Of a stretch of 64,000 bases of DNA, positions 13,497 through 44,703 are shown one piece after another. How positions within the stretch are numbered: position 1 is the stretch's first letter; each line of letters opens with the position of its first letter. Made by a program: the position numbers and the translations under genes. The notes under the pieces are model-generated. The model was not told where the DNA came from, ran no database searches, and saw nothing but the letters and a program-made list of their open reading frames with translations. This DNA is from a virus (Duplodnaviria > Heunggongvirae > Uroviricota > Caudoviricetes), in IMG/VR virus record IMGVR_UViG_3300009008_000002; one strand, written 5' to 3'.

Positions 13497-13571
13497 TAGG
13501 CCGGATAGGACTTGAACCTATGACCTAACGATTATGAGTCGTTTGCTCTAAACCAACTGAGCTACCGGCCC
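13497..13571 (-). tRNA. tRNA with CAU anticodon (elongator Met or Ile2-lysidine type); no encoded CCA
   Basis: Reverse complement folds by hand into a 75-nt cloverleaf: 7-bp acceptor stem (G1:U72 wobble), GCTC/GAGC D-stem, anticodon stem AACGA/TCGTT with loop CUCAUAA, 5-nt variable loop, T-arm ATAGG-TTCAAGT-CCTAT, discriminator A. Confidence 0.85.
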
Positions 13572-25493: not shown

Positions 25494-25685
25494 ATGTTAG
25501 TATTGTCAAGAAAGAAAGATGAAAGCATTCTATTGCAGATTGATGGACTTCCCGATATTAAAATCACAGTCGTTCGGGTAGACAACCTGAATAAAGTCCG
25601 GCTCGGAATCGAGGCTGAAAAAGAAGTAACGGTTCTCCGATCAGAACTGTTGGAAAAACAACCCCTTAAGGTCGCTGCACTCTGA
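25494..25685 (+). CDS. csrA: carbon storage regulator CsrA (RNA-binding translational regulator)
   Basis: MLVLSRKKDESILL…IKITVV…VRLGIEAEKEV.VLRSEL matches the CsrA/RsmA fold sequence nearly position by position; AAGGA RBS 8 nt upstream. Confidence 0.85.
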   Translation: MLVLSRKKDESILLQIDGLPDIKITVVRVDNLNKVRLGIEAEKEVTVLRSELLEKQPLKVAAL

Positions 25686-25757
25686 GGTTGTAAAGTTCCA
25701 AGTCCAATCTTATTGTAGCATATGCTACCATGCAGTCAAGTCTAGGTAAGGATTCGC

Positions 25758-26498
25758 CTAGCTAGGCGAATCCTCATTTAGATATTCCATGCGTTTGGTG
25801 TGTTCGTTGTAGGTCGCAATTAACTCGATTGATCTAATTGCACCAGCATCCCAAATGCATCCGGCTGCACAATCCCAGCCATAATACCACATTCCGCCAT
25901 TTAACCGCAGACTCCACAGGTAAGGGCTAATCTCAATCCCGCTCCAAATTTCCGATACATCGTGCCAATTAATGTAATTGGGCCGCATTTCACCGAATCC
26001 TTGGTCAAGAATTCCAAGTGATCTGGCCGCTTCGCTATCAGGAGCAACCCCCATTTTTTGGGCGTAATAATCTGCCGACTTCATGCCGAATTCATCCGAA
26101 AATTCAACAAATTCAGCATCATTCGTTATTTTACACACCTTTCCGTTGTAGAGTTGGACTTCATGGATTAAATGCGGACACCCGAAATCTTCGGACACAC
26201 ACCAATCAATCCACGATCCGCCGCACGAATACCACAACCCCAAAGGTTTTCCACAACCATCATGGGTCCAATCTTGTTCCCTGTCTGTAGGAACAATTAT
26301 GGTTTCCACGCTGGTAATTATTTTCCTATCTTCGCTCAAACCTTCCGAAAAATCACTGAGCGAAGCCTTGTAAGTGTCATCCCAAATAGGCGCACGTTCC
26401 TTGCGGTTCGCCTCAAATTTTTTCTCCCAGCGCTCTGCAAGTTCTTGTGGATTACACATTCCCGCTAACGCTTCTTCGTGGATTGCCTGATCGTCCAT
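25758..26498 (-). CDS. hypothetical protein (246 aa), Trp/Cys-rich
   Basis: ORF. Confidence 0.4.
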   Translation of the reverse strand: MDDQAIHEEALAGMCNPQELAERWEKKFEANRKERAPIWDDTYKASLSDFSEGLSEDRKIITSVETIIVPTDREQDWTHDGCGKPLGLWYSCGGSWIDWCVSEDFGCPHLIHEVQLYNGKVCKITNDAEFVEFSDEFGMKSADYYAQKMGVAPDSEAARSLGILDQGFGEMRPNYINWHDVSEIWSGIEISPYLWSLRLNGGMWYYGWDCAAGCIWDAGAIRSIELIATYNEHTKRMEYLNEDSPS

Positions 26499-26661: not shown

Positions 26662-28104
26662 CTAATCTTCACTTCTTGACCCATCACCGCACATTCGCAC
26701 GATTTTAGGATCGAATTGCGCCACGATTTCCACAAGGTCAGCCTGTTCCATCATAACATTGTGGATATTTTTATAAACCCCCGGCACTTCGTCTGCGCCA
26801 GCAGAAAGCACCCTAACCCCTTTACGGGCAAGGTCTTCTCGCACTGCCTTCCAATTGTATTTATCTTTCGCTTTTTTTCGGGACATAACCCGACCTGCGC
26901 CATGTGACGCAGAATACAGACTATCGGGATTACCCATACCACGAACGATAAACGCTGGCGTAGCCATAGAACCTGGGATTACACCCAACACACCTGGGCC
27001 AGCAGGAGTAGCACCTTTTCGGTGGACAATTACCTCTCCAACATCCAGAGAGTGCATTTCTTTCCACGCAAAGTTATGGTGATTCTCCACGTCCCAGAGG
27101 ACTTCGGCACCAGTTAATTTCGCAAGCTGCTTATGGATCACGTCATGGTTCGCAGCCGCAAATCTACCCATCAACTCCATCGCCAGCCAGTATTCCTGGC
27201 CTTCCTCAGAATCTAAGGACAACCAAGCCAGACGCCCCAAATCTTCTTTATATCGAGGGTCCAACTTCATTTGCGCAATGGCGCTGTATTGCTGGCAGAC
27301 AGTGCTTCCTGGCCCTCTTGAGCCAGAATGCGACATAACCGCTACATACTGCCCGGCAGGTAAAGTGAGGCTCTTTGGCACATGCGGATCACTAGCGGCA
27401 TGTGAATGATCATCAGGAATAGTAACAAGTCCAAATTCCACAAAATGATTCCCACTACCACTTGTCCCAAGCTGGAGGACCGCTTTATCTTTTTGGTCTT
27501 TCGTGACGCTGGTGACAGACCAATCATCATCAAGAACAGGATGATTTCGAGGCTGATCATATACAGCGCTACCTTTATTACCGATTCCAAAGCGAGTTCC
27601 TTTCTCCAAGGCTTCCTTGAACAAATTAAACTTGGAGTCCAGGTGGGTCACTGGCAAATCCAAGACCGACAATTTCATTCGACAGGCAATGTCAACACCT
27701 ACCGCGTAAGGACACACGGCATTTTTAAGAGCCAACACCCCGCCAATTGGCAGTCCGTAACCCAAGTGCGCATCCGGCATTAGCGCAGCACCAACCGCAT
27801 CTGGCAGACTACATGCCTGCTTCATTTGACCGTGGCAAGACTCTTCAATTTGGTCGCCTCCCCACGTTTTATAATCAATCGGCTCTGGGCGCACGAAATC
27901 ATTGTTCTCGATCACTGCCTTAGCGAAATCGCCCCAGTGTTCATGGTCAGCGTATTCACCCGGAAGTGCCAAAACGTTTTTTATCGTATTTTTCAGAACA
28001 TTGGTGCGCACATGTCCTTTGATACATGCAGACTGAATGCCCTGGATGCACGCTTTCAAGCAAATTTCCGGCACGCCTAGTTTTCGTAAAGCCTTGTTAT
28101 TCAC
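26662..28104 (-). CDS. rtcB: RNA-splicing ligase RtcB (3'-phosphate/5'-hydroxyl RNA ligase)
   Basis: MPDAHLGYGLPIGGV, GSGNHFVEF, HSGSRG, HNFA motifs of the RtcB family; 480 aa. Confidence 0.9.
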   Translation of the reverse strand: MNNKALRKLGVPEICLKACIQGIQSACIKGHVRTNVLKNTIKNVLALPGEYADHEHWGDFAKAVIENNDFVRPEPIDYKTWGGDQIEESCHGQMKQACSLPDAVGAALMPDAHLGYGLPIGGVLALKNAVCPYAVGVDIACRMKLSVLDLPVTHLDSKFNLFKEALEKGTRFGIGNKGSAVYDQPRNHPVLDDDWSVTSVTKDQKDKAVLQLGTSGSGNHFVEFGLVTIPDDHSHAASDPHVPKSLTLPAGQYVAVMSHSGSRGPGSTVCQQYSAIAQMKLDPRYKEDLGRLAWLSLDSEEGQEYWLAMELMGRFAAANHDVIHKQLAKLTGAEVLWDVENHHNFAWKEMHSLDVGEVIVHRKGATPAGPGVLGVIPGSMATPAFIVRGMGNPDSLYSASHGAGRVMSRKKAKDKYNWKAVREDLARKGVRVLSAGADEVPGVYKNIHNVMMEQADLVEIVAQFDPKIVRMCGDGSRSED

Positions 28105-28108
28105 GATC

Positions 28109-28624
28109 TTACCTTTGAATTAAACTGGATGGTTTCGTTTTCACTTTCTCAACGAAACTCTCCAATTTTTGTCGGTCATACTCCAAAGCATCTACTGCTT
28201 GTTGAGGGGTCATAGCCTTCCAAGCTCGGTAGCTGCCATAATTGGTTTTGAGAGAGGAGTTACACTCCATCCAACCACTATCTGTAAACTGGGTCTGCCA
28301 AAACCGGGCAATAAGAGTATCCATATCCGTTGCAGCCCGCTTATAGTGGCCTCCACTATACCCCAAACAGACTGCTGCGTATCGACCAATGACATTGGGA
28401 ACGGATGGCCAGTAGACAAACTCATCGTCTTCTTTAGCAAAGGCTAAGAAGAGATAAGAGTGTTTCTGGTATTTCCTATGGCCAAAGACCAAATATGGAA
28501 AAGGCAAAAAATAAATATTGCTATGGTGCGAAATACACCTCTTCTGAGGGGGATATTTCCTTACCTCATACCCTCTCCCCTTCGCCAACACTTTGTACTG
28601 GGTCGCCATACCCGAAATCCTCAA
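28109..28624 (-). CDS. hypothetical protein (171 aa) sandwiched between rtcB and the kinase-SLOG gene
   Basis: ORF; operon position only. Confidence 0.4.
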   Translation of the reverse strand: MRISGMATQYKVLAKGRGYEVRKYPPQKRCISHHSNIYFLPFPYLVFGHRKYQKHSYLFLAFAKEDDEFVYWPSVPNVIGRYAAVCLGYSGGHYKRAATDMDTLIARFWQTQFTDSGWMECNSSLKTNYGSYRAWKAMTPQQAVDALEYDRQKLESFVEKVKTKPSSLIQR

Positions 28625-29576
28625 ACACTTTTAATAAAAATTTGACAGTGAATTCCTGAATTCCCGGTGATTTACTCTCTCTGTTGCCCGCAATATTGAC
28701 GATTCGTATATCGTTTTCCTGAAACCAAGCCTTTACAGTTTCAACTTGTTCAGAGAAATCGTTTTTCGGATCAACGTCAACATAGGGCTTGTTGTAATCT
28801 CGAATTCCCTTCAGAGTGCATTTCTCGCCCACAGAACCCCAATTTGAGGCAATTCTGATTGTGCCATCAGAATCCTTGGCATTCAACCGAGTTCTAGGGA
28901 CGTAACTATCTGTCTCCGTTTCAGTTAGGCCAAGCACCTTCAACTCAGGACTCGCCCCTTTTTCTGTTCTAAAGCCTTTGGGAATCCACCCGCCAGTGGG
29001 TATTTTCAGCATATATGCGGCTTGCAATCCGCCCTGATCAGCACCAGTTTGGCCACCAGAAATTACCCTTTCGACATTATAACTGGTTTTCCCCAACTGT
29101 GAACTTACAATTTCACTAAACCCTTCTTCAGCCTGAACTTCCTGATAAACAGACAAGTGGTGGCGGGCATTCACCAACCAACGCTCATACGAAGTGCCCC
29201 TAGAATCGTGTTCCGTTCGTCTCTTAGCATGAACCTCTGGGGATTCTATGGGAAACAGTATGGCGATTGGTTCCGCTTCAAGGCTCTTGGCAAGAGCAAT
29301 CCAACGGACACGACTTTGACGAGCAAGGTTCAATCCCCTATCAATTATTACATCTTTGCCCATAGCAATGGCAATATGTAAAATATGATCTTCGATAGAC
29401 TTGTAAAGGGGCTTTAATTCTTTGGAATAAAGAGTGTAGACGCCACCATGAACAGCAGTCACGATGGAATCGTCATTTATGACGATAGCACCTTCTTGTG
29501 CTCTTTTTGCTGAGTAGGTTGACTTGCCAGAGGCAATCATGCCTACCAGAACTTCAATTCTAGGTTTGCTTTTCAT
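28566..29576 (-). CDS. P-loop polynucleotide-kinase-like domain fused to C-terminal SLOG (MoCo-carrier/YpsA-like) domain
   Basis: N-terminal Walker A VGMIASGKST, then IVINDDS and DRGLNL…R (PNK/zeta-like kinase layout). C-terminal ISGGQTGADQGGLQAA…GGWIPKG…DSDGTIRI matches the SLOG/MoCo-carrier-like signature. Confidence 0.7.
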   Translation of the reverse strand: MKSKPRIEVLVGMIASGKSTYSAKRAQEGAIVINDDSIVTAVHGGVYTLYSKELKPLYKSIEDHILHIAIAMGKDVIIDRGLNLARQSRVRWIALAKSLEAEPIAILFPIESPEVHAKRRTEHDSRGTSYERWLVNARHHLSVYQEVQAEEGFSEIVSSQLGKTSYNVERVISGGQTGADQGGLQAAYMLKIPTGGWIPKGFRTEKGASPELKVLGLTETETDSYVPRTRLNAKDSDGTIRIASNWGSVGEKCTLKGIRDYNKPYVDVDPKNDFSEQVETVKAWFQENDIRIVNIAGNRESKSPGIQEFTVKFLLKVFEDFGYGDPVQSVGEGERV

Positions 29577-29603: not shown

Positions 29604-29879
29604 TTATGCAACCTTATTATTGATAAATCTAATCAATTCATCATGCGTATAACCTGCCTCAATCACGTAATCCTCGATAAACTCAATCTGATCTTGAGTA
29701 AGAAAATCGAAATGTTGGAGTTCATCAAGAGTGACGTTTCTACGTCGGACGTGCCATGCGGCAGATAGAAGTCGGTTGTTTATTGAGCTATCAAACAACC
29801 GATTGCAATTTGAACAGCTAGAGATCCCGTTAGCTAAGGGAGCATCTAGTATGTGACCACAAAATGGGCAATATAACAT
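29604..29879 (-). CDS. small zinc-ribbon protein
   Basis: CPFCGH…CSNC four-Cys ribbon at the N-terminus. Confidence 0.4.
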   Translation of the reverse strand: MLYCPFCGHILDAPLANGISSCSNCNRLFDSSINNRLLSAAWHVRRRNVTLDELQHFDFLTQDQIEFIEDYVIEAGYTHDELIRFINNKVA

Positions 29880-29893: not shown

Positions 29894-30229
29894 TCATTTC
29901 GTGGAAATATTAAAACCCAATGCTGTTGCTATTTCATTTAAATAAAACTGCTTGCCTTCTGGTGTGGGATCAAGACTACCATTTTTCAATAATGCCTCTA
30001 CGTCACCTAAGCCATTCTTAAACGCAGTAACGGCTCCGTCTACCATTTCCTGCAATGCTTCTAATTGCTGGGACCGTTGTAGAAATATTTCTAGCCGGGG
30101 TCCAGTCTCAAATAGACTTTCTAATTCCAGACCTTCATCCAACTCTTGCTCTGTGATCTGCCCAATTCCTGCTTTGAACCACAACTCATTCAAGCGAGCT
30201 ACTTTTTCAAGACGTTCTTCATCCATCAT
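29894..30229 (-). CDS. hypothetical protein (111 aa)
   Basis: ORF followed by an A/T-rich hairpin region. Confidence 0.35.
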   Translation of the reverse strand: MMDEERLEKVARLNELWFKAGIGQITEQELDEGLELESLFETGPRLEIFLQRSQQLEALQEMVDGAVTAFKNGLGDVEALLKNGSLDPTPEGKQFYLNEIATALGFNISTK

Positions 30230-30286
30230 AATAAAAAAACCTCGTTACCCTAATAGAGCAACGAGGTTTTTATTTTGAACGGACTT

Positions 30287-31573
30287 CTACACGAAATCAG
30301 ATTCCTCATCATCGTCATCGTAGTCCGCATCGTCGTCGTCATAATCTTCGTCTTCAGCGACGACACTTTCGACTTCATCCTCTTCCTGATAGTCAGCTAT
30401 GACTTCTTCGGCTGAGGCAGCTTCATCATCATCGACTTCCTGCTCGGCGGTTTCTTCTGTGTCAGCATCATCCTCTACATAATAATCGGAGAACACCGAT
30501 TTAATGAGGGCGATTGGCTCTTGGTTTCCGCCTGTGAGAATCGAATCTACGATAGCACGGGCCAGATTCAGATGATCCACTTCACCAATGAATTCATCGT
30601 CTTCGTCGTGACCATCATTCCCTAACCACTTATCAAGCGATTTTAGAATCTTCTTGATTTTGGCTTTGCTGAGGGAAGATGATACGTGTGTGGCACCGAC
30701 AACAGTAGAAGCAGTGTTGAGGTTTTTATTTCGAGCCTGCGGAGTAGTGTCTTCCGCCTCTTCAAGTGCCGCTTGGGCAGTGTTGAGGTTTTCGTGCGCT
30801 TGTTCCGCTTCCTCTGAAGCCTGCTCTTTGTCGTCGTCGTCACCCATGACGTTAGCAGCAGCCACATTGGCGTCTGCCGTTTCGACTTTATCCTCGGCCT
30901 TTGTCACGGCTTTCTCTCGCTTTCCTATTTCGGCCTGCCAATCTTTGGCAAGGTCGTCAAGGGTTGCTTTGAGCAAAGCGTGACGCAATTCAACTTCCTC
31001 GATAGCGGCCAATTTTAAAGCCACCCGCAGACTGAGACGACCATTCTGGTATTCCTCGAACGTGGTAAGATCGAGATTGCCAAGAATGTCCATCTGGCGA
31101 AGCCAAGGTTTGGTCCGACCAGTGATTTCTAAAATCTTCTCGTCAGAAAAACCGATTTTTCGCCAATGACGAACACATGCCGCCGTGGCATTGTCGCCAA
31201 TCGGCTTGCCCGTATCATTATCGCGCCACGCGATGATCCAGGCTTCATCGTCGGTAATACCTTCGTAGATACGAACGGGCACCGACTCTTTTTCCAACTT
31301 CATGGCACAGCGAAGTCTTCGTTCACCGGCCAAGAGTATTAAATCACCATTATCCAGCTTCCTGAGAAGAAGTGGGTTGGTGATACCGCGAGTGTCAATA
31401 TCCTCACAAAGCTGTTCCATTGACTGGTTTTCAAAGCCTTGTGCAGACAACTCGCCTTCGCCGCCCTGGTGGAAATGGCGGGGATTGCAGAAGCCGTCAT
31501 CCGTCAACGAATCTGCAAAAATGATTTCCCCAGGAGAAATTTGTTGAACTTCCGGCATTGTGGCGGTAGTCAT
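30287..31573 (-). CDS. ParB N-terminal-domain (ParB/Srx nuclease-like) protein with extremely acidic C-terminal tail
   Basis: LLAGERRLRCAMKL (GERRxRA ParB box II); C-terminal ~60 aa almost entirely D/E (DEDYDDDDADYDDDDEESDFV). Confidence 0.65.
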   Translation of the reverse strand: MTTATMPEVQQISPGEIIFADSLTDDGFCNPRHFHQGGEGELSAQGFENQSMEQLCEDIDTRGITNPLLLRKLDNGDLILLAGERRLRCAMKLEKESVPVRIYEGITDDEAWIIAWRDNDTGKPIGDNATAACVRHWRKIGFSDEKILEITGRTKPWLRQMDILGNLDLTTFEEYQNGRLSLRVALKLAAIEEVELRHALLKATLDDLAKDWQAEIGKREKAVTKAEDKVETADANVAAANVMGDDDDKEQASEEAEQAHENLNTAQAALEEAEDTTPQARNKNLNTASTVVGATHVSSSLSKAKIKKILKSLDKWLGNDGHDEDDEFIGEVDHLNLARAIVDSILTGGNQEPIALIKSVFSDYYVEDDADTEETAEQEVDDDEAASAEEVIADYQEEDEVESVVAEDEDYDDDDADYDDDDEESDFV

Positions 31574-31603: not shown

Positions 31604-32236
31604 TTAGAAAGCATAATTCTTATTTTCTTTACGACAACGAAGTTGCCAAGAGACTTCATACTCCTTTCTCCCAAAATTATCAAGCGAAGAATTCTTCTTT
31701 TTTAGGACTAAACCTTCGATTTCGTCCAATTCGATGAAATCTTGAAATCGGGGAACAAAATCTCGATCAAAAGTTTCAGCCAACCACACGTTCTCTGAAA
31801 CTACTAAAGCGATTCCGTTCGCTGATTCCCTTTCTTCAGGACTTCGACATATACTTTGAAGCAACTCATATCGCTTCAAGAGGTTAGGGCTACCGAATAA
31901 ATACCTACCAGCCTGCAACACGTCGAACAAAACCACACGATTTTTGTATTGTGGATCACTTGTTTTTCTATGCAAAAGTTCAGCGTCAAACCAGTATTCC
32001 TTACCCGGTTCAATTGCCAAATCAAGGATTTGTTGAGCTACCTGATCTGACAAACTCCACTGCTTATGGGGGGAATTGTGTCTTGTCCACGCCGCAACTT
32101 GGCCATTGGCGCTAACATTCAGGACAGTCCTAGTCCCATTGAACTTTCTCTGGGCTACCCATATTCCCTGTCTTTCGTATTTGGGTAGCTCTACGGGACG
32201 AATTCTATGCTTGGGGCGGGGCGGGTAAATGGCCAA
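31604..32236 (-). CDS. minimal ATP-dependent polynucleotide ligase/capping-enzyme-superfamily nucleotidyltransferase domain (no OB domain)
   Basis: Motif I AQRKFNGTR (KxNGxR), motif III FDAELL, motif IV VLFDVL, motif V EGLVLKKKNS in correct order and spacing. Confidence 0.55.
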   Translation of the reverse strand: MAIYPPRPKHRIRPVELPKYERQGIWVAQRKFNGTRTVLNVSANGQVAAWTRHNSPHKQWSLSDQVAQQILDLAIEPGKEYWFDAELLHRKTSDPQYKNRVVLFDVLQAGRYLFGSPNLLKRYELLQSICRSPEERESANGIALVVSENVWLAETFDRDFVPRFQDFIELDEIEGLVLKKKNSSLDNFGRKEYEVSWQLRCRKENKNYAF

Positions 32237-32679: not shown

Positions 32680-33313
32680 GAGATTTATCTGGACGGCGAC
32701 CCGACCTTACGCTGTTGTATGGCGGATCACAACCACATTCATATTTCAGAAAATAATTTTTAGGAGATTTTGCTCTAAACTTAACATGTTTAAATACTTC
32801 AAAATCCACTTCCTGCATCATTCTTTCATACCAATCCTCTCTCAGATCCATAATCTGTTCATCAGGGAAAACTACGCAACCATTTTTACACGGACAATCC
32901 AAACCTCCAAAATCATCACACTGCGAGTGATCAGAAAAATCGCCTACATCACTACTGGAAAGGTAGCCAAACTTATCGTCGCGGGCCACGTAAAGACCAC
33001 ACAATAGAGCCTGTTTGGCATAGTTTTTGTTGTGATATTGATAGTTCGATGAATCTTTTATCGAGTGTATATGGTTGTTGATGTGACAGGCTTGGTGAAT
33101 GACCTCATCTAAAATTATTCGAGGCGGCACATGAGGCATTAAAGTCCCCAACACCAACTCAAAAGGACCGGAAAAAAATCGCATAGCAAAACGATTTCTC
33201 CCCTTGACCTTTATCGCTGGGACCGGCAAGGTATCCTCAAAAAATGTCTTTGAACAATCTTTAAGTATCCTTAAAATCTCTCTCTTCGCTAGTCGATTCG
33301 GCATAAGTCTCAC
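32555..33313 (-). CDS. hypothetical Cys-rich protein with C-terminal zinc ribbon (SprT-like?)
   Basis: C-terminal CGC…CEDCG ribbon; HQACH is not a canonical HExxH, so the protease assignment is weak. Confidence 0.3.
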   Translation of the reverse strand: MRLMPNRLAKREILRILKDCSKTFFEDTLPVPAIKVKGRNRFAMRFFSGPFELVLGTLMPHVPPRIILDEVIHQACHINNHIHSIKDSSNYQYHNKNYAKQALLCGLYVARDDKFGYLSSSDVGDFSDHSQCDDFGGLDCPCKNGCVVFPDEQIMDLREDWYERMMQEVDFEVFKHVKFRAKSPKNYFLKYECGCDPPYNSVRSGRRPDKSHALRVRCEDCGQLFRCVEPGYTNGENGHAESHGGGAGRTVK

Positions 33314-33947
33314 CTTCTTCTTCTAAGCGAACTTCTCGAAATAACTCGCCAATTCCTTCTGCATCCCCCAAATCGACAAATCTAGTTGCCGCCTCTTTTA
33401 ATTTGTAGGAACACTTTTGATCGAAGAAAGCGACCTCAACCGCCAAACCTTTTTCATCTTGTAAACGGGTAACTAAGCGGGCATATTCTTCGTCGCCCGC
33501 CACCAAAACCAAAGTATCAAATGCGGCGTCACGACTTAACGCACACATATCGTAAACAATCTCCAAATTAATATTAGCGGAAAAACCCTGGTGCTGGGGC
33601 AATCTTACCGTGGTGTAGCCAGCACGCTCCAGCACATAATAAAATGAGCGGCGCTTTTTGGCCGCTCTGAGCAACGCTGGATCTGCGTCATCCCTTACCA
33701 CAGGCTCCGAGTAATAAAATTTGGCAGCAGCCATCGTCCTGTTGTCTGCAAGGTATTCCTTCAATTTAATATAGTCGATCCGGCGACTACTCAGAACTTC
33801 CTGCATTTCCTGCACAGCGCCAAACAAGCTGCTGTTGTCCACAAATAACGCTACTTTCTCTTTCTGCCTTATTTCCTCCTGTAAATCATCTAACCTCTCG
33901 ACTAAAAATTGGAGACCACCATCTTCAGGCCATAAATTGGAATCCAT
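33261..33947 (-). CDS. NYN-domain (LabA-like, PIN-fold) ribonuclease; start trimmed to internal Met
   Basis: VALFVDNSSL…, DYIKL…, LVLVAGDEEYARLV…GLAVEV pattern of NYN domains. The listed N-terminal 43 aa look like antisense read-through. Confidence 0.6.
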   Translation of the reverse strand: MDSNLWPEDGGLQFLVERLDDLQEEIRQKEKVALFVDNSSLFGAVQEMQEVLSSRRIDYIKLKEYLADNRTMAAAKFYYSEPVVRDDADPALLRAAKKRRSFYYVLERAGYTTVRLPQHQGFSANINLEIVYDMCALSRDAAFDTLVLVAGDEEYARLVTRLQDEKGLAVEVAFFDQKCSYKLKEAATRFVDLGDAEGIGELFREVRLEEEGETYAESTSEERDFKDT

Positions 33948-34045
33948 TTCGGTTCCCCAAAGTGAAGTGAAAAAGAGACATTTCTTCGCATACTGAGGCA
34001 TGATCGTTGAAAGTATGCACCAAAACCAAACTGGAGTCAAGAGCA

Positions 34046-34732
34046 ATGTCTGGAAAAAAAGAACACGTAGAAACAAAAGTATTCCAGCACGGGAAAAAGA
34101 TTCTCCTGAATATCCACCACGCCGATGACAAAATGCGCGGACATCGAGTTTCCGTCTACATAGCCCGTGATCAGAATGAATTGTTTGGTGATTGGTTGTG
34201 CGACGTTCAGACCTACGATGCCGAAGCCGACGATGGAGAATGGTTCCTCACGTTCCGGGGTAGTAGAGAACTTCCCGAAGAGATCAAATACAAGCGATGG
34301 CCCAGCTACAGAGCTGCCATAGACTTCTACCTACCCTTCAGTATAGCCGTTCGCAACGAAACCGAACGACACCCTCTCCCTGAAGATGTTACCCAAATTC
34401 TGGAAAGTTGGTCAAGATCGCTGTCTGACGAACGGAAAGAACTGGATAGTCGGTATCATGCCCTGATGCGCCGACGATGGGAATTAAAACACCTAGCTGA
34501 CAAATACAATTTGACCAGCCTTGGGTATCAGAATGAAGACACTGACAAGGCTCAAGCACTTCGTCGTCTGCTAGATTTTGAACACTGGATGGAGAAAGAA
34601 GAAAAGACTATTCCGTTCTTTTCTGAAGCTGTTCTCTACGAATTGGTGGGCAAGGAAGACGCCCGCACCATTCTAGCTCTATTGAGGGGTGTAGCAGAAC
34701 ACATTGATCCAGAAATCGCTAAGGAGATTTAA
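34046..34732 (+). CDS. hypothetical protein (~228 aa), divergent from the NYN gene
   Basis: Plus-strand ORF not contradicted by minus-strand genes; start set at the second Met. Confidence 0.4.
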   Translation: MSGKKEHVETKVFQHGKKILLNIHHADDKMRGHRVSVYIARDQNELFGDWLCDVQTYDAEADDGEWFLTFRGSRELPEEIKYKRWPSYRAAIDFYLPFSIAVRNETERHPLPEDVTQILESWSRSLSDERKELDSRYHALMRRRWELKHLADKYNLTSLGYQNEDTDKAQALRRLLDFEHWMEKEEKTIPFFSEAVLYELVGKEDARTILALLRGVAEHIDPEIAKEI

Positions 34733-35702: not shown

Positions 35703-36530
35703 TTAGGTAGGTTGGGCGTATTTTTGAATATCTTTTAGGTAGAGAATTTTATTTCCCTTCGTTATCTGCTCTGTAGTGTCTGGCCTCTTCCGGCGCATAT
35801 ACTTCATAGTGCAATCACCTTCGTGATATATAAAGCTCTTTACAGAGATGGCTTGACTGAATCCGTAAGCTCGCATTCGCTTGGCAAATTCCGCATTTTC
35901 GTAACCAGCAAAGGGATAATGCTTTATGTGTCCTATCCTATTAAATAACTCACGATGACACATTGCACAATACAAAGGTAAATACTCATCCTCTTCATCA
36001 AGGACAATATCCGCAAAATCTGTTTCTTCATCTGGAATCAGGGATGCAGAAGACTTCATCTTAAAATTATCAACTGTAGGGTTATTAGTCAAAGGTGCTA
36101 CCATCTTAATGCCTTGATCCTTCAGTTTCATCATAGATTGACCCAAATTAAGGAGCCAGCGAGGCTCTTTAATCAGACAATCTGAGTGCATTATCACCAC
36201 CCATTTGAAAATCGGCTGATTCTTACGCCTCACCTTATCTAGCGCCTCAATTCCCTTCTGAATACACGCTCCAAAACCAATTTGCTCATCATTTCTGACC
36301 TCTAGCAAATTCGGTATTTGCCCAAAACCGTATTGAATGAAATCCTGATTAGGTGAAGCATCATCAACCAAACAAATTCTAAAATGAGGCGTCATGGTGT
36401 GATGAATTAAACTTGTTACTAACGATGCTACCTTTTCATATTGACCATAAAAAGGAATGACCACATCCACATATTGATCTGAAAAAAGAGGGTGATCATC
36501 TACAAAATTAAAAACTTTCGATTTTCCCAT
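35703..36530 (-). CDS. family-2-like glycosyltransferase
   Basis: VVIPFYGQYEKV…ICLVDDASPN (GT-A fold DxD region). Confidence 0.5.
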   Translation of the reverse strand: MGKSKVFNFVDDHPLFSDQYVDVVIPFYGQYEKVASLVTSLIHHTMTPHFRICLVDDASPNQDFIQYGFGQIPNLLEVRNDEQIGFGACIQKGIEALDKVRRKNQPIFKWVVIMHSDCLIKEPRWLLNLGQSMMKLKDQGIKMVAPLTNNPTVDNFKMKSSASLIPDEETDFADIVLDEEDEYLPLYCAMCHRELFNRIGHIKHYPFAGYENAEFAKRMRAYGFSQAISVKSFIYHEGDCTMKYMRRKRPDTTEQITKGNKILYLKDIQKYAQPT

Positions 36531-37046
36531 TTAAATACCTAAAATTAAATCAGAGGGTGAATCACAATGATATACTGTAGCCTGTTCAGCAAAAGTTGCC
36601 ATAGTGTCATAAGCATCTCCAATGCCATAAAACACGAATTTAGTAGGAACATCTAATCTCTCCTTGAATCTCATGCCCTTCACAACGCCATATTTATTGT
36701 CGGACTCGTACCTATCCGTCACTACCATGATTACCCTGTCATAATCATACGAATCTTCTCCAGCCAAAACAAAGTAAGTTTGCTTAATAGCCTGCCCCAA
36801 GTGAAACTCTGAGAACTTTAACCGCATCATTTGTGCGATAGTTTGGCTTTTGTATCGAGGAACATCTAATTCGTCTTCCCGAAAAACATACACCCTGTCA
36901 TCATGGTGAAGACCCGCTATAAAATGAGAAAACTTTGTTTTGAGTTCATTTAAAAAAGGCGGTCTATTTATATCAAAAATCACACCTATTAAGCTATTTT
37001 GCATTTTTTCTCCTGTGTTTCTGGTGATTGTAAATCTTGCACACAT
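36531..37046 (-). CDS. hypothetical protein (171 aa)
   Basis: ORF; 5' end overlapped by the homing endonuclease gene. Confidence 0.35.
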   Translation of the reverse strand: MCARFTITRNTGEKMQNSLIGVIFDINRPPFLNELKTKFSHFIAGLHHDDRVYVFREDELDVPRYKSQTIAQMMRLKFSEFHLGQAIKQTYFVLAGEDSYDYDRVIMVVTDRYESDNKYGVVKGMRFKERLDVPTKFVFYGIGDAYDTMATFAEQATVYHCDSPSDLILGI

Positions 37047-37950
37047 ACTGAAAAGATGTCCCTAACTCAATTGCTATTTCTTTATAGGTCCAACCTTTTT
37101 CTCTTAAATCAAAAACACTATTAAGTTTCTCTTGGCTGAATTGCCTTGCAAAAGCAGATTTAGAAATATCAATTTTGTAATCCATACACTCACACGGTAT
37201 TTTTTGATCTCTAATTAAATCCATAAAATCAAAGTATGATTTGGCAGGAACATTAATCTCAACTTTATCTTTTTTAACCAACCTTAGTTTCGTTTTAATC
37301 CCCACACCCAATTCTATTAAATCTACAAGTCTTTCACACTCCTCATCAGAAAAACCATCAGTAGAGAAAAATGCTTGCCTGTGCGGGCTAAAATTCCTAC
37401 CATCATCAAAAAACCACACAGCAAGTACAAAGGGAGTAATGTTTAACTTAGAAGGCAAACACTTAACCCTTCTGCCACCTTTCAAAATGTAATCACCATC
37501 ATTGTTTCGTAAATACCACTCTTTTTCCATTTCATAAAAAACAGAATGATAAAGCGTATAGCATTGCCACGACTCTTTCCTTTGTCCTATTTTACCATTA
37601 GGAAAAACAACCTCAGTTGGTGGTCTTGGAATTAATTTGCGAGAAAATGGCTTCAATAAATCATTTTTCCAACTCAAATAATCCTTTTGCACAACCGAAT
37701 GCCATTCTGCAAAATTTGATTTTACTTTTCTTGGTTTAGACAAACTGCCATCGCCCAAAAGCGATCCAATTAAAAGGTTATGCTGCTTTTGAGTAAACAC
37801 ATTTGGAAGATCCACCCTGCGTTTAAAAAGCCCATGCCGTTTTGCAATGCGGTCAACAGTAGACCTTGAAACACCAAAATAATCAGCCGTTTCATTGTTT
37901 GTGTGTTCAAGCCAAATATTTTTAAATTCTTCAACATCAACATCTATCAT
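36994..37950 (-). CDS. LAGLIDADG homing endonuclease (two-motif, single-chain) with flanking HTH-like segments
   Basis: LLIGSLLGDGSL and VLAVWFFDDGR LAGLIDADG motifs ~100 aa apart; free-standing (not obviously intronic/inteinic). Confidence 0.8.
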   Translation of the reverse strand: MIDVDVEEFKNIWLEHTNNETADYFGVSRSTVDRIAKRHGLFKRRVDLPNVFTQKQHNLLIGSLLGDGSLSKPRKVKSNFAEWHSVVQKDYLSWKNDLLKPFSRKLIPRPPTEVVFPNGKIGQRKESWQCYTLYHSVFYEMEKEWYLRNNDGDYILKGGRRVKCLPSKLNITPFVLAVWFFDDGRNFSPHRQAFFSTDGFSDEECERLVDLIELGVGIKTKLRLVKKDKVEINVPAKSYFDFMDLIRDQKIPCECMDYKIDISKSAFARQFSQEKLNSVFDLREKGWTYKEIAIELGTSFQYVCKIYNHQKHRRKNAK

Positions 37951-38744
37951 AGCGAACTTCCTCTTAGTTTTCTATGATATATACGAATAGGATTTAAAAA
38001 ATCTTTAATCGGGTGTAAAATACTTGCTTTTTTGTAATTTACATCTATATCAGGTCTAAATCTTATTGGAAACTGTTCGTGATAGCCGTGCCACTTCTGA
38101 TCCGCTTCTGTAAACTTAGCAAGCTCATTAACAACGCCGCCGTAATGAGCCGCTAAAGTGGGAAACAGGTGCTCACCGAAATCGTAACCACCCTGCTCTT
38201 CGTAGCCAGGGAAAAACCCCTTTGAAAAATCGTTAGTATAAAAAAGGAACTTATCAAAGAAATCAATCTCAAATAATTTCTTGACAAAATCTCGATGATG
38301 GAACACACAAGCACCAAGTAGATAGTGACTAAATAAAAAATTCGTCTCGAATATACTTTCCAACAATGGGAACTGTATATTCCCAGTTCTGTAGTCATTC
38401 CCCAAACACCATATCTTTTCCTTTTCTGCTGCTTGTAAATATGGCCCAAATCCTGACGATGCTACCAAGCAATCGTATTCCATATAACAATACCAATCAG
38501 CATCAGGGAATATGGTCCCAGCGTGTTTTAAAGCTAGAACAATGTTTCTATATGGGGCACGGTTGCAAGCATGATATAGCCCCTCTAGCTTATGAACTGG
38601 CAATTTCACCTTTTCTAGTTTATGCCAACCGGCACCATCACAAATAACCAACACATCATGGGTCATCCACCGTCTTATGGATTCTAATGTATCGAAGACA
38701 ATTGGCGAGTCATCATGCACATTTAAAATGGCTGCTATTTTCAT
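37947..38744 (-). CDS. hypothetical protein (265 aa), possibly glycosyltransferase-like
   Basis: ORF in glycan island. Confidence 0.35.
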   Translation of the reverse strand: MKIAAILNVHDDSPIVFDTLESIRRWMTHDVLVICDGAGWHKLEKVKLPVHKLEGLYHACNRAPYRNIVLALKHAGTIFPDADWYCYMEYDCLVASSGFGPYLQAAEKEKIWCLGNDYRTGNIQFPLLESIFETNFLFSHYLLGACVFHHRDFVKKLFEIDFFDKFLFYTNDFSKGFFPGYEEQGGYDFGEHLFPTLAAHYGGVVNELAKFTEADQKWHGYHEQFPIRFRPDIDVNYKKASILHPIKDFLNPIRIYHRKLRGSSL

Positions 38745-38807
38745 ACAAAAAAAATTCCTGCTAACTAACTTATTTTAAGTGAGTAACAATATTCAGGAGT
38801 CGAATAA

Positions 38808-39722
38808 ATGAATCCAGAAGAAAAAACAAAGTTGAAAGAATTGTATAGGGTGTTAGTTGATGAAAACGACCCCCAAAAGCTACCCTATCTGCATGTATTG
38901 GGCGACCTTGTAGGTCAGAACACTGATTTCATTGCACTGAAAAGCCTGTTAGCAGGCGATAACTGGCCGCGAGCGGTTGATCCCAACTTGATTTGCGACC
39001 AAGAATCAGAAACAGATAAAATTAGTCGTGCAGAAGGTATTTTAGAACTATTAGTCGAGAAAGACTTAAAAGACAAGAAATTTCTCGATTTCGGATGTGG
39101 GGAAGGTCATGTGCCATATAAGTCACTGGTGCAAGAGCCTACTGTCACGGTTGGTTACGATATTAAAACCAACGACCATTGGACTGAGTTCGGGAGCAAT
39201 GAAAAACTTGTATTCACCGACAAATTAGAAGAAGCAAAAGAACACGCTCCTTATGACGTGATTCTTGTATACGACGTTATCGATCACGTCACAGCAGAGG
39301 AAAGCGTTGCCATTTTAAAACAAGTCCATGAATTGCTTGATGAAAACGGCACGGTTTATTTAAGAGCACACCCCTTCTGCTCACGACACGCCACACACTT
39401 ATATCACAACATCAACAAATCGTTTATCCATTTGGTGTTTTCCGCAGATGAATTGCAACAATTGGGATATGAAGCCCCACCGAATGCTAAAGTTGTTTAT
39501 CCAATCACTCAATACGGCCAGATGTTTGAGCAAGCTGGCTTTACAGTAAGCCACCACAACATTTTAAGAGAGAAGGTCGAACCCTTCTTTTTGAAGAACC
39601 CAGTTGTAAAAGAAAGGGTTAGATTGAATTACGCAAACAGCCCTGATAAACACATTAAAAAAGGTGGTTTCCCTGAATTCCAACTTGAACAACAATTCAT
39701 TGATTATGTCCTAAAGAGATAA
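38808..39722 (+). CDS. class I SAM-dependent methyltransferase
   Basis: KFLDFGCGEGH motif I, VILVYDVIDHV (post-II), NGTVYL motif III. Confidence 0.6.
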   Translation: MNPEEKTKLKELYRVLVDENDPQKLPYLHVLGDLVGQNTDFIALKSLLAGDNWPRAVDPNLICDQESETDKISRAEGILELLVEKDLKDKKFLDFGCGEGHVPYKSLVQEPTVTVGYDIKTNDHWTEFGSNEKLVFTDKLEEAKEHAPYDVILVYDVIDHVTAEESVAILKQVHELLDENGTVYLRAHPFCSRHATHLYHNINKSFIHLVFSADELQQLGYEAPPNAKVVYPITQYGQMFEQAGFTVSHHNILREKVEPFFLKNPVVKERVRLNYANSPDKHIKKGGFPEFQLEQQFIDYVLKR

Positions 39723-39723
39723 T

Positions 39724-40785
39724 ATGTCAAAATCAACAATATACGATCTCCAGATCGTGATGCCAGTAACCTTTGAGGGCAAATATGGTCAAAGGTTGCT
39801 GGATTTTAAAAAGACCGGACTCCTGAATATTAAGGATAAGAAAGTGCTGGTTACTCTGCTCATTGGGCCAGAACGCGCTCCATTTTGGAAAGGCGACTGG
39901 CCCGATGGAGTAGATGTTGAAGCCATTGAGAGTCCACACAAGCAGGAAACCCCAAAAACTTATAGCTATTTCGGCACACTCAAAGCTGAAGATATAAGAG
40001 CAAGATGGATAGCCAAAATTGATGATGACACAATTAATGATGTGTCAAATTGGGTTGATAAACTAGATGAAGAATATGATCATACTAGAGAATATTATAT
40101 CGTCACTGAATTCAGACCAGAACAACATGCCCACGAAGACAACATCTTAAGAGAAATGGGATTTAATCGTTGGTTTACAACCAAGAAATGCGTCATCTGG
40201 CATGAATTAGAAGGATGCGTGGTATCTGAAGCGGCTCTTAGCAGAATAGTAAGCAATGAAACTGCGACCAAATTCATGCAAAAAAGAGCAACCATTCCAG
40301 AGGGCTACAATGACTATGCTCTAGCGTGCGCTGCTCGCATATGTAAGATTTACCCCAGCGATGCATATTTTATGTCAAAACTTCCACAGATTGGGGATCT
40401 CATGTTGTTCGGTGGACACCTTTGCCATATACATGAAATCTCACATGATAGAAACTTCCACTGCTTTGATTTAATACAAAGAATGATGAATGAAGATATA
40501 GGCAGTGAAACAGACATCCATAATGAGGTTGTAGGAAAAGAGTTTGTGTACACAAATGGACATGCGATGCTAATTGTTAAATTAGAACCAAATGGTGTAA
40601 TAAGCGGCCAACGTTCAGATGCTAGAATTTGGCATGTCAAACCAAACGGCTTTTTGGAATTTCTGAGAAGTGATGGCTCGCTGGTTGAAGTGTTTGATAA
40701 TTATGAAAACACAAATTTTATGGAAGGGTATCACGACAAAAACTCACGCCTACCAGGAAAACCTCAACTCAGAAAACTAGCATGA
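39724..40785 (+). CDS. hypothetical protein (353 aa)
   Basis: ORF directly coupled to the upstream MTase. Confidence 0.4.
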   Translation: MSKSTIYDLQIVMPVTFEGKYGQRLLDFKKTGLLNIKDKKVLVTLLIGPERAPFWKGDWPDGVDVEAIESPHKQETPKTYSYFGTLKAEDIRARWIAKIDDDTINDVSNWVDKLDEEYDHTREYYIVTEFRPEQHAHEDNILREMGFNRWFTTKKCVIWHELEGCVVSEAALSRIVSNETATKFMQKRATIPEGYNDYALACAARICKIYPSDAYFMSKLPQIGDLMLFGGHLCHIHEISHDRNFHCFDLIQRMMNEDIGSETDIHNEVVGKEFVYTNGHAMLIVKLEPNGVISGQRSDARIWHVKPNGFLEFLRSDGSLVEVFDNYENTNFMEGYHDKNSRLPGKPQLRKLA

Positions 40786-40801
40786 TTTTATTATATACAG
40801 T

Positions 40802-41464
40802 ATGAAACTGGTTGCATTCTATAATAAATCATATGAGCCATTAAAAAAACGATTTCTCAAGTCCCTCCTTGATGACTTTGAGCTAGATATAGATTTCATT
40901 CCAATAAAAGCAAACGAAAACACGCCAGGAGGAGGTCGTTCAATATGGAAAGCCAGAACAAAATGGACAGCAGACAAAATCCAAAAATACAAAAATGAAA
41001 TAGTATTATTCTGTGATTTGGATATTCAATTTTTCCAGCCAATCAAAGACAATATCCTAGCCTTATTGAATGACAATGATATACTATTTCAAAGAGCCAA
41101 ACCCAATAGAAAACCAATTAATATTGGAGTTATGGTAGTCAAATGCAACAAAAAAACTGAAACTTTGTGGAGGTTAGCGAGCAATATTTCACACTATTAT
41201 AAAATTCAAGACGAAGATATAATAAACACCCTATTAAGCTCTCAAGTAACCAATCCACTTCAAATAAAATATGATTTCCTACCATTAACCTATGCTATCA
41301 CTAATTACATAAATAATTCTACTATTGTTGACTTGATGTTACACCATGAAACATCTACTAGATTTATAGAAAGCAAACTAGAAGTTATGTCCAAAATAAA
41401 AAAAAGATGGGAGAAGGGAATGAGAGAAAAGGAGAGGAAAGTCTCCCGACCGTGCTATTTATAA
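40802..41464 (+). CDS. hypothetical protein, possible nucleotide-sugar transferase-like
   Basis: ORF; FCDLDIQFF resembles GT-A DxD context (weak). Confidence 0.35.
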   Translation: MKLVAFYNKSYEPLKKRFLKSLLDDFELDIDFIPIKANENTPGGGRSIWKARTKWTADKIQKYKNEIVLFCDLDIQFFQPIKDNILALLNDNDILFQRAKPNRKPINIGVMVVKCNKKTETLWRLASNISHYYKIQDEDIINTLLSSQVTNPLQIKYDFLPLTYAITNYINNSTIVDLMLHHETSTRFIESKLEVMSKIKKRWEKGMREKERKVSRPCYL

Positions 41465-42949: not shown

Positions 42950-42962
42950 ACTTTATTAAAGT

Positions 42963-44695: not shown

Positions 44696-44703
44696 TCCGA
44701 GAG

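Follow-up and report, generated by a model that had tools for sequence, protein, structure and literature searches.

Genes for the RNA ligase RtcB, for a polynucleotide kinase (PNK)-clade P-loop kinase fused to a circularly permuted YpsA (cpYpsA) SLOG domain, and for an E2/UBC-fold protein (designated E2L) form one tightly packed same-strand unit between two hairpins in a 64,000-nucleotide stretch of Caudoviricetes DNA, hereafter the window. The locus brings phage RNA repair together with NAD+/ADP-ribose signal handling, both active topics in the study of host-virus conflict, in one polypeptide (the PNK-type kinase with SLOG) and in one operon-like unit with RtcB. The component parts were already known; the kinase::SLOG fusion and its E2-like partner are new. 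The explanation that we favor, to which we give an even chance of being right, is that the unit represents a mosaic island for counter-defence, specific to its lineage, in a huge-phage-like genome, and that it mends nucleic-acid ends and handles ADP-ribose-type nucleotides, the functional links being drawn from gene neighbourhood. The source genome is probably very large and viral, and its DNA-level similarity to GenBank phages amounts to a single spurious match of 96 bp.

Gene order and transcription unit

The three ORFs are found where the sequence-only reading had placed them, all on the minus strand: the gene for RtcB at 26662..28104 (480 aa, GTG start), the middle ORF at 28109..28624 (171 aa when read from a TTG) and the kinase::SLOG gene at 28566..29576 (336 aa). 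That reading had called the kinase::SLOG gene downstream, but on the minus strand the order is reversed, and transcription therefore runs from kinase::SLOG through the middle ORF to RtcB, the last of the trio. These are not chance ORFs, because they include Pfam matches to RtcB, AAA_33 and cpYpsA and because identical products have been called as genes on three metagenome assemblies. For the middle gene the most likely start is ATG 28609 (28109..28609, 166 aa), since GAGGA lies upstream of this codon, homologues begin there and gene callers choose it. With this start it shares 44 nt with the kinase::SLOG gene, and a gap of 4 nt separates its stop codon from the RtcB start.

A hairpin with a T run resembling an intrinsic terminator (30235..30271, minus strand; 17-pair stem, also detected as an inverted repeat) directly follows the stop codon of a ParB_N-domain protein gene and probably bounds the transcription unit on its upstream side. 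The first gene after it encodes a helical protein of 111 aa with no family match (29894..30229, minus strand), a variable position that is taken by a YbaB-like gene in the related contig L022. Next comes a 91-aa protein with an N-terminal CxxC...CxxC zinc-ribbon-like motif (29604..29879, minus strand), directly upstream of the slot that holds the kinase and SLOG genes. No further hairpin occurs until the end of the gene for an uncharacterised 246-aa protein (25758..26498, minus strand; phrog_8582, 3e-14), which has one at its 3′ end (25741..25782) and is probably the last gene of the unit. Judged from the gene overlap and the flanking hairpins, co-transcription of the trio is plausible.

Beyond the upstream hairpin lie the genes for the ParB_N-domain protein (30287..31573, minus strand; 428 aa, Pfam ParB_N 4.5e-9) and for a ligase-like nucleotidyltransferase without an OB domain (31604..32236, minus strand; 210 aa). 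Other conflict genes in the window encode TIR, NYN, a Pnkp/ApaH-like metallophosphoesterase and CsrA; the Pfam scan covered about 55 of its ORFs.

Protein families encoded by the unit

RtcB joins a 3′-phosphate or 2′,3′-cyclic phosphate to a 5′-OH in a GTP/Mn-dependent reaction. The earlier assignment of the last gene of the trio to this family is borne out by a full-length match to Pfam PF01139 (4.5e-85, 286.9 bits; aa 93-469 on profile positions 1-423 of 426) and by phrog_1075 (3.4e-92). The translation contains the motifs VDIAC, GSGNHF, HSGSRG, NHHNF and SHGAGR, which we take to carry the Cys and His residues that bind metal and the His that accepts GMP (HGAGR) in P. horikoshii and E. coli RtcB, and as far as this complete active-site motif set indicates, the enzyme is intact. 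It is 62-66% identical to RtcBs of Planctomycetota, with which (cellular RtcBs) it shares an N-terminal extension, and 70% identical to the phage RtcB of L022, as against at most 36% for other phage RtcBs. RtcB thus looks host-derived, from a probably planctomycete lineage, and a separate capture is suggested because it is closer to the Planctomycetota RtcBs, including their N-terminal extension, than to other phage RtcBs. Its GC content of 0.489 is inside the range of the neighbour genes, so that composition is uninformative on transfer.

Three possible links of RtcB were considered and set aside. As the sequence-only reading had noted, no archease is recognisable: none is matched by Pfam among the neighbouring genes of the cluster or the ORFs scanned elsewhere in the window, and none is in the gene list of L001. 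Membership in the RtcB2-PrfH system is contradicted by a score of 124.6 bits against release_rtcB (TIGR03073; cut-off 271.8), and the sole release-factor-like gene detected in the window is RF1-like and 35 kb away (prfH model 59 bits, cut-off 167). For a link to tRNA splicing, the 90-nt "tRNA-Trp" called by ARAGORN at 34346..34435 was unconfirmed by Rfam and is taken as a false positive.

The kinase domain occupies about aa 1-160 of the fusion (29097..29576, minus strand) and matches AAA_33 (1.5e-12 over aa 9-120) and phrog_505 polynucleotide kinase (1.1e-8). The proposal that it is PNK-like holds up in a search with a profile of 22 subfamily members, in which mammalian PNKP (8e-11), C. thermocellum Pnkp (CthPnkp; 8e-8), Pnkp1 (2e-5) and T4 Pnk (1.5e-4) rank above dephospho-CoA kinase, PSTK and every small-molecule kinase. 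Conserved across the 22 homologues are the P-loop GxxxSGKST, D36, R119 (invariant), R120 and R126 (at least 90% each), R119 and R120 being the lid arginines. The general-base Asp after the P-loop is present: D37 aligns with D38 of CthPnkp, and every subfamily member has the Asp of the NDD motif (listed as D36). The polynucleotide-contacting Arg three residues past the catalytic Asp (R38 in T4, R41 in CthPnkp) is missing, its place being taken by V40 here, and the column is not Arg in the subfamily. No 3′-phosphatase (HAD or metallophosphoesterase) is fused to the kinase, the C-terminal half being cpYpsA by Pfam, and the bacterial Pnkp model gives 22.7 bits, far under its cut-off of 750.

The cpYpsA SLOG domain spans aa 171-317 of the fusion (28626..29066, minus strand). 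The earlier SLOG assignment is upheld by a match to PF12694 (4.1e-38, 130.8 bits) that covers profile positions 1-144 of 145 and by one to PDB 3imk (7.1e-23), with which it has the ISGGQTGAD and NIAG motifs in common. The fusion was rightly called unusual: among the best 120 of 382 matches in 5.8 billion protein clusters, both domains occur together only in an identical protein, and no full-length match is found in GenBank phages. To judge from these searches, the PNK-clade kinase::cpYpsA architecture is seen only in this lineage and is a new fusion of known parts.

Viral SLOG domains of the YpsA clade have been predicted to be sensors or processors of ADP-ribose (ADPr) derivatives, and their fusion partners are Macro and NADAR and, sporadically, P-loop (guanylate) kinases (PMC9503650). 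Is the kinase::SLOG protein then not a polynucleotide kinase but an enzyme of small molecules, which neutralises host immune nucleotides, SLOG capturing an ADPr-derived or cyclic-nucleotide signal that the kinase phosphorylates or otherwise inactivates, with RtcB as an unrelated neighbour? Viral SLOG domains have been proposed to bind or degrade cADPR-type signals (PMC9503650), a TIR-domain protein is also encoded in the window, one stand-alone kinase homologue adjoins nucleotide-metabolism genes and the substrate-contacting Arg of CthPnkp is not conserved. However, polynucleotide kinases outscore dephospho-CoA and shikimate kinases by several orders of magnitude in the profile comparison, the kinase matches both phrog_505 and the bacterial Pnkp model, and in the phage LR756511 the kinase gene, there without a SLOG partner, is in synteny with the ligase-like gene. 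We regard this role as quite unlikely.

The middle ORF, which the sequence-only reading had left as an unknown protein and a possible cofactor of RtcB, is recognisable as E2/UBC-like. E2L matches Prok-E2_D (PF14460) with 32.4 bits, above the Pfam gathering cut-off of 25, over profile positions 22-169 of 171; its UBC fold is supported by a fold search, and a sequence search of PDB gave no match. Its motif VPN72-x8-C81-L may correspond to HPN77-x7-C85-L of UbcH5, and the Cys is kept in about 70 of the 71 family members. The family is very divergent, the Pfam model being reached at E ≤0.01 by only 7 of 27 members, and is so far restricted to metagenomic huge-phage-like contigs. A word-index protein search with the middle ORF returned only itself, and a full HMMER scan was needed to find relatives; a scan of genome contigs and a further scan gave no relative, and single-protein scans of IMG/VR gave almost nothing. 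A role as a general RtcB cofactor does not fit these data, since E2L has no detectable homologue in 50,697 GenBank phage records, though 522 of them encode RtcB.

The neighbourhoods of E2L genes are heterogeneous. In L028 and L029 the gene stands between a Macro gene (PDB 5e3b, 5.7e-67) immediately upstream and an HD_4 gene downstream; in L027 two tandem copies lie two genes downstream of a PF09414 RNA ligase gene, with a third copy about 3 kb upstream; and at several loci only AAA+ ATPases or uncharacterised genes adjoin. The family thus recurs beside genes of ADP-ribose modules (SLOG or Macro) or RNA ligases, and it is the main lead of the locus.

An E2 fold raises the question of ubiquitin-like conjugation, in which E2L, in a PRTRC-like system with the nearby ParB or with a host E1, would tag host or phage proteins, RtcB being a target or a bystander. 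Membership in Prok-E2_D, a weak PRTRC_B match, the ParB_N protein encoded three genes upstream and the near-invariant Cys in an E2-like PN...C context all point this way. On the other side, Pfam finds no E1/ThiF, JAB or ubiquitin-like (Ubl) protein among the approximately 55 scanned ORFs of the window or in the lists of five loci (L001, L015, L016, L022 and L025). PRTRC membership itself, considered for the pair of Prok-E2_D and ParB, was rejected: PRTRC_B gives 15.4 bits against 131, ThiF is absent from the same scans, and the NCBIfam matches of ParB are generic rather than PRTRC-specific (PRTRC_parB 31.3 bits against 278.6), and ParB matches PRTRC_parB no better than generic ParB. Conjugation of this type is highly improbable.

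A variable slot in related huge phages

Four related huge-phage contigs have in common a block consisting of the ligase-like, ParB and zinc-ribbon genes, a slot, and the genes for CsrA and ClpX. The ligase-like gene is syntenic in L022, L025 and L031, and homologues of the 91-aa zinc-ribbon protein (30-49% identity) occupy the same position in all three. The slot contents vary. In L031 (LR756511) the ligase-like, ParB and zinc-ribbon genes are followed by the kinase alone, with no SLOG partner; in L025 they are followed by cpYpsA, E2L and, directly after the latter, a homologue of the 246-aa protein (198 aa, 37% identical), without RtcB and kinase; in L022 the slot holds cpYpsA, a GIY-YIG homing-endonuclease insert, two E2L genes and RtcB; and the fusion with E2L and RtcB is found in the source locus only. 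The three-gene arrangement, whose co-occurrence elsewhere had been proposed as a check, is therefore not conserved, since the relatives lack RtcB, the kinase or both. The stand-alone cpYpsA orthologues in the slots of L025 and L022 are 52-54% identical to the SLOG domain, and the overlap between the cpYpsA and E2L genes is retained in relatives with only 35-52% identity. The kinase::SLOG fusion probably arose at this site by the joining of two genes, which in related phages either alternate or occur together in the slot.

RtcB is missing from two of the four syntenic contigs and L022 carries a homing-endonuclease insert, and adjacency may for these reasons reflect an insertion hot spot. Taken further, the site after the zinc-ribbon gene would be a hot spot for accessory genes, holding independent counter-defence genes that each act alone, and the fusion would be a neutral accident of stop-codon loss. 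Slot content differs in every relative, with other inserts besides the GIY-YIG homing endonuclease in L022; each half of the fusion has as its nearest homologues stand-alone genes whose surroundings are unrelated (for example ribonucleotide reductase with dCMP deaminase, or sugar-modification genes) and include no RNA ligase; and RtcB functions without these partners in hundreds of phages. Nevertheless, the fusion protein is identical in three assemblies and is therefore maintained, the cpYpsA-E2L overlap persists at the low identity given above, and E2L is paired with another ADPr module (Macro) in unrelated megaphage loci and adjoins two unrelated classes of RNA ligase. We hold independent accumulation to be somewhat unlikely.

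Under the favored explanation, a mosaic counter-defence island, the parts could cooperate as follows. Metal-independent host RNases would leave 2′,3′-cyclic-phosphate and 5′-OH ends, the substrates of RtcB, and RtcB, captured from a probably planctomycete host lineage, would directly reseal the tRNA or rRNA so cut. The kinase and RtcB cannot share one linear pathway, because a 5′-kinase yields ends that are unusable by RtcB. Phosphorylation of 5′-OH ends by the kinase would instead lead to a second, RtcB-independent sealing by the conserved ATP-dependent ligase-like enzyme encoded three genes upstream, while a calcineurin-type phosphoesterase encoded elsewhere in the window could heal 3′ ends. 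The sequence-only reading had suggested that the kinase could prepare ends for an ATP-dependent ligase; this ligase-like gene, conserved and syntenic with the kinase gene in LR756511, strengthens that idea, and its product is a candidate partner of the kinase. The family matches of the ligase-like protein are weak (DNA_ligase_A_M, 23.7 bits; NHEJ ligase domain, 3.7e-7; phrog_114) and it has no match in PDB; four phage homologues (43-67% identity) show no variation in motifs I (K31-F-N-G), III, IIIa, IV and V. The SLOG domain may bind or hydrolyse an ADP-ribose-derived nucleotide, either a repair by-product or a host immune signal, and thereby gate or complement the kinase. E2L, the conserved partner of the SLOG gene here and of a Macro gene in other phages, is in this explanation not an RtcB cofactor and would most likely serve that same ADP-ribose-linked step as an enzyme or adaptor dependent on its Cys.

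Several observations count against the island explanation: the strong terminator-like hairpin lies between the ligase-like gene and the kinase gene, R41 of CthPnkp is replaced by V40, a fused 3′-phosphatase is lacking, and the kinase and cpYpsA homologues, like E2L, occur in unrelated or heterogeneous contexts.

A more ambitious proposal is that the E2L proteins are Cys-dependent enzymes of huge phages that act with SLOG or Macro and with no E1 or ubiquitin, and that kinase::SLOG, E2L and RtcB form one working pathway. We think this very unlikely. One possibility under such an E1-free reading is that a covalent ADP-ribose-linked intermediate is formed or resolved, its carrier being either a damaged RNA end or a defence protein of the host; if true, this would mean a new UBC-fold chemistry and would add a step to RNA repair or anti-defence. 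If the link of E2L to its neighbours is functional, the locus would offer a testable handle on viral SLOG function and on a non-ubiquitin role of the E2 fold in prokaryotic viruses. The synteny series of four phages also shows the ways in which such an island is put together: capture of host genes, swapping of slot contents and fusion in place.

Comparison with known systems

RtcB has been described in jumbo phages (PMC7824862). Like the phage RtcBs of tRNA repair against host anticodon nucleases, the present protein is a member of the RtcB family whose active-site motifs are intact; unlike them, it is closer to Planctomycetota, and its gene follows one for an E2-like protein that is missing from other RtcB phages. 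The archease-RtcB and RtcB2-PrfH operons likewise have a small accessory gene adjoining RtcB, but here the accessory protein has an E2 fold and there is no archease.

With the T4 Pnkp-Rnl1 and bacterial Pnkp-Hen1 systems the locus shares a PNK-clade 5′-kinase, a ligase-type nucleotidyltransferase in a conserved block and a Pnkp/ApaH-like metallophosphoesterase in the window. However, the three activities are here on separate and partly distant genes, SLOG replaces the phosphatase on the kinase, and no Hen1 is seen.

E2L resembles Prok-E2_D and PRTRC protein B of bacterial mobile elements in its above-threshold Pfam match, its UBC fold and its conserved Cys. It differs in being divergent, encoded by huge phages, often as tandem paralogues, and located near SLOG, Macro, RNA-ligase or AAA+ genes, with no E1, Ubl or JAB found.

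The closest precedent for the fusion is the set of viral YpsA-clade SLOG fusions (Iyer, Burroughs, Anantharaman, Aravind 2022, PMC9503650), in which cpYpsA likewise occurs in large phages and SLOG is fused to an effector. In contrast to the "SLOG sensor-activated" fusions described there, the partner here is a PNK-clade domain, and the conserved E2-like partner encoded downstream is absent from that work.

Gene order, synteny and genomic setting

All genes of the region lie on the minus strand. In transcription order, the ligase-like gene (32236..31604) comes first, followed by a ParB_N gene (31573..30287) and a strong terminator-like hairpin (30271..30235, minus strand), and then by the genes for a 111-aa protein (30229..29894), a 91-aa protein whose N-terminus resembles a zinc ribbon (29879..29604) and the 336-aa kinase::SLOG fusion (29576..28566). 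Next come the middle ORF (28609..28109 when read from the likeliest ATG, encoding 166 aa, hereafter E2L), the RtcB gene with a GTG start (28104..26662) and a 246-aa gene (26498..25758). The last of these has a hairpin at its end (25741..25782) and faces a convergent CsrA gene. The sequence-only reading had assembled an RNA repair operon from RtcB, an unknown protein and a kinase::SLOG fusion. The three ORFs are real and lie where it placed them, as their order, the 44-nt overlap of the E2L gene with the kinase::SLOG gene, the start of RtcB 4 nt past the E2L stop codon and the lack of any terminator-like element found between them indicate; the fusion, described there as the downstream gene, is actually the upstream one. 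They are probably the centre of a six-gene transcription unit, the co-transcription of which we infer from the sequence. The best sigma-70-like match of the region (11 of 12 positions; 29076..29103, minus strand) lies inside the fusion gene at the kinase/SLOG junction and may be a relic of a former cpYpsA promoter.

Identical copies of the three proteins are encoded on three metagenomic contigs, of 9.5, 53 and 105 kb, the longest on record being 193 kb. The best GenBank match of the ClpX-like gene, the kinase and the syntenic block is the 595-kb "uncultured phage" LR756511.1, and further relatives are IMG/VR viral contigs, one of them of 527 kb. Because no virion gene was recognised within the window, the label "huge phage" is drawn from these relatives.

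The three-gene arrangement itself is not conserved: relatives differ at the slot after the Zn-ribbon gene, and the pieces belong to a conserved block. The 82-kb contig L025 keeps the gene order of the window for more than 20 kb, running from an NYN gene through further genes to BON-like, ligase-like (67% identity), ParB, Zn-ribbon and stand-alone cpYpsA (52%) genes, then a DUF2934::E2L gene (35%) overlapping cpYpsA by 20 nt, a homologue of the 246-aa gene (37%), CsrA and, after others, ClpX-like; it has neither kinase nor RtcB. The 239-kb contig L022 has ligase-like (66%), ParB, YbaB-like, Zn-ribbon and stand-alone cpYpsA (54%) genes, then four inserted genes, one of which encodes a GIY-YIG homing endonuclease, and after these a tandem pair of E2L genes and RtcB (70%). 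LR756511 has ligase-like (43%), ParB, Zn-ribbon and stand-alone kinase (51%) genes, and cpYpsA, E2L and RtcB are all missing from its slot. Thus the slot holds the kinase, cpYpsA or both fused, and RtcB is present in two of these four genomes, the window included. An NYN-domain RNase (33261..34076; 2.7e-18) and a CsrA homologue (25494..25685) flank the block; both are kept in L025, which has two CsrA genes.

Several other features of the window were recorded. An RF1-like gene without domain 1 (62608..63345, minus strand) matches prfA at positions 185-339 of 361 (2e-44) with PPT and GGQ motifs present, and conservation of its frame reaches about 95 codons further 5' than the first canonical start. 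At 63345 there is an ATG preceded by GGAGG; eight codons later the frame meets a TGA (63321), and then conserved RF1 sequence follows. The gene may be a pseudogene, may use a non-canonical start or may be expressed by readthrough or recoding. A neighbouring pair of large SPFH/Band_7 proteins (57536..59281, 8.9e-15; 59317..60966, 1.5e-28; both minus strand) adjoins a UvrD-type helicase (54719..57418), and a 159-aa protein (1225..1704, minus strand) has an OGFr_N domain (3.2e-13), unusual in a phage-like genome. GC content is 0.35-0.40 in 36000..54000 and 0.43-0.50 elsewhere; the products looked up there are of glycosyltransferase, methyltransferase and LAGLIDADG types. A tRNA-Trp called by ARAGORN (34346..34435, 90 nt) is probably false, Rfam seeing only a tRNA-Met (13497..13571).

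The kinase::SLOG fusion and RtcB

In the fusion, an AAA_33 P-loop kinase domain (aa 9-120; 1.5e-12) precedes a cpYpsA SLOG domain (aa 171-317; 4.1e-38), and a ten-residue linker joins a complete kinase to a complete cpYpsA, each of the stand-alone type. The SLOG half matches PDB 3imk, a "putative molybdenum carrier protein" (7e-23), with ISGGQTGAD and NIAG motifs common to both. The kinase half alone matches the kinase domain of Clostridium thermocellum Pnkp (CthPnkp) weakly (0.009), and a profile of its 22-member subfamily matches mammalian PNKP (8e-11), CthPnkp (8e-8), Pnkp1 (2e-5) and T4 Pnk (1.5e-4), with dephospho-CoA kinase and PSTK ranking behind the polynucleotide kinases. Further matches of the kinase half are to phrog_505, "polynucleotide kinase", and, with a score far below the cut-off, to the model of bacterial Pnkp. 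The profile searches thus bear out a PNK-like kinase fused to SLOG, of which the polynucleotide substrate is putative. The subfamily keeps the P-loop and the Asp aligned with the CthPnkp general base; among the lid arginines of the 22 sequences, R119 is invariant and R120 and R126 are kept in at least 90%, and Val stands where CthPnkp has R41. This Val and the SLOG partner could be accommodated by a small-molecule kinase directed against signalling, and the profile ranking places the protein nearer to the polynucleotide kinases; we regard the small-molecule reading as improbable.

Among the best 120 of 382 matches in a search of 5.8 billion clusters, only the identical protein has both domains, and no full-length match to the fusion was found in GenBank phages. 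Each half has its closest homologues in stand-alone genes that lie in unrelated contexts with no RNA ligase. The PNK-clade::cpYpsA architecture is apparently new and limited to a single lineage; fusions of SLOG to effector domains, a P-loop guanylate kinase among them, are already on record (PMC9503650). Elsewhere in the window, a 351-aa protein (10704..11759, minus strand) has a C-terminal TIR domain (TIR_2, 2.7e-22); its presence on the phage side, together with SLOG in one genome, fits an NAD+/ADPr theme.

RtcB matches the Pfam RtcB profile across its whole length (4.5e-85) and phrog_1075 (3.4e-92), and what we take, from the general RtcB literature, to be the metal-site motifs and HGAGR are legible in its translation. 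It shares 62-66% full-length identity with RtcBs of Planctomycetota genomes and MAGs and at most 36% with those of 522 GenBank phage records. One cellular copy (locus L023) is surrounded by ordinary chromosomal genes. RtcB was presumably captured from a planctomycete-like host lineage, GC content adding no signal for the transfer.

An E2-fold family and its neighbours

The middle ORF, an unknown protein in the sequence-only reading, belongs to a recognisable family: E2L passes the Pfam gathering score of Prok-E2_D (32.4 bits against 25) over nearly its full length, and it faintly matches PRTRC protein B. A word-index search matched E2L to itself only; when 1.84 billion representatives were scanned exhaustively with HMMER, 73 relatives emerged, 20 of them below 1e-10. 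Cys81, R24, P38 and W130 are invariant in an alignment of 27 relatives, and among the 73 the Cys is kept in about 70 of the 71 sequences covering the site. The AlphaFold model built from the 27-sequence alignment is confident (pLDDT 90.4, pTM 0.88) and has an E2 fold. The canonical E2 active-site stretch is HPN-x7-C-L, and E2L has VPN72-x8-C81-L, a likeness at the sequence level.

The family is so far confined to metagenomic contigs resembling large phages, with no detectable homologue in 50,697 GenBank phage records and only three structural matches in BFVD, all uncharacterised. It is often multiplied: there are three tandem copies in loci L011/L012, two each in L013, L030 and L022, three copies in L027, a second paralogue in the 82-kb contig, a further E2L domain in L025, and E2L genes at no fewer than three separate places in the 527-kb megaphage. 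In L015-L018, on related contigs, a second paralogue downstream of a 610-aa AAA ATPase is placed between the homologues of two genes, 3981..4682 and 3264..3980, which in the window abut with no E2L between.

A cpYpsA SLOG gene lies directly upstream of E2L in the window and L025 and in the same block in L022, and RtcB lies directly downstream in the window and L022. In two IMG/VR contigs (L029, 7492..9264; L028, 7405..9174), a trio is kept in which a Macro-domain gene (SCO6735-like; PDB 5e3b, 5.7e-67) is directly upstream of and overlaps E2L, with HD_4 downstream, the two E2Ls sharing only 48% identity. A PF09414 ATP-dependent RNA ligase is two genes upstream in L027, AAA+ ATPases are near E2L in L011 and L013, and uncharacterised genes in L026 and L030. 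E2L recurs behind SLOG or Macro genes and next to two unrelated classes of ligase, a suggestive pattern tallied over about eight independent contexts. The varying contents of the slot and the genes inserted in L022 could also come from a mere insertion hot spot; set beside this recurrence, we hold that explanation to be rather unlikely. A genuine Ubl-conjugation system would suit the fold and the conserved Cys, and the scanned ORFs and precomputed Pfam lists contained no E1/ThiF, JAB or ubiquitin-like protein; such a system is highly improbable.

Proposed mechanism and comparison with known systems

From the domain identities, packing, synteny series and E2 fold, we propose a composite mechanism to which, taken as a whole, we give an even chance. 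RtcB would reseal RNAs whose 2',3'-cyclic-phosphate and 5'-OH ends come from cleavage by host metal-independent RNases, the standard role of phage RtcB (PMC7824862). The kinase domain would serve the ligase-like nucleotidyltransferase of the same block, in which motifs I (K-F/Y-N-G), III, IIIa, IV and V are invariant and the gene of which stays next to the kinase in LR756511; this pairing is the better one because a 5'-kinase makes ends unusable by RtcB. A calcineurin-type metallophosphoesterase (61056..61895, minus strand) finds its best NCBIfam matches in ApaH and in the phosphatase portion of bacterial Pnkp (6e-9), and homologues are carried by the 527-kb megaphage; it is a possible 3'-end healing enzyme. 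The SLOG domain may act on an ADPr-type nucleotide, by binding or cleavage, and couple this to the kinase, and E2L may join the SLOG (or Macro) protein in a Cys-dependent or adaptor step. SLOG and Macro are ADP-ribose-handling modules that co-occur in phages and are tied to RNA repair by-products and host NAD-derived signals (PMC9503650).

None of the papers searched describes a pairing of E2-like proteins of phages with SLOG, Macro or RNA-ligase genes; an earlier mention is possible, above all in the review by Burroughs and Aravind (2016). What deserves follow-up is the E2L family, the "RNA repair operon" cluster as such less so. Phages were already known to carry RtcB and PNK, and large phages YpsA-clade SLOG domains. 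The locus differs from PRTRC, archease-RtcB, RtcB2-PrfH and bacterial Pnkp-Hen1 systems, failing the membership tests of each.
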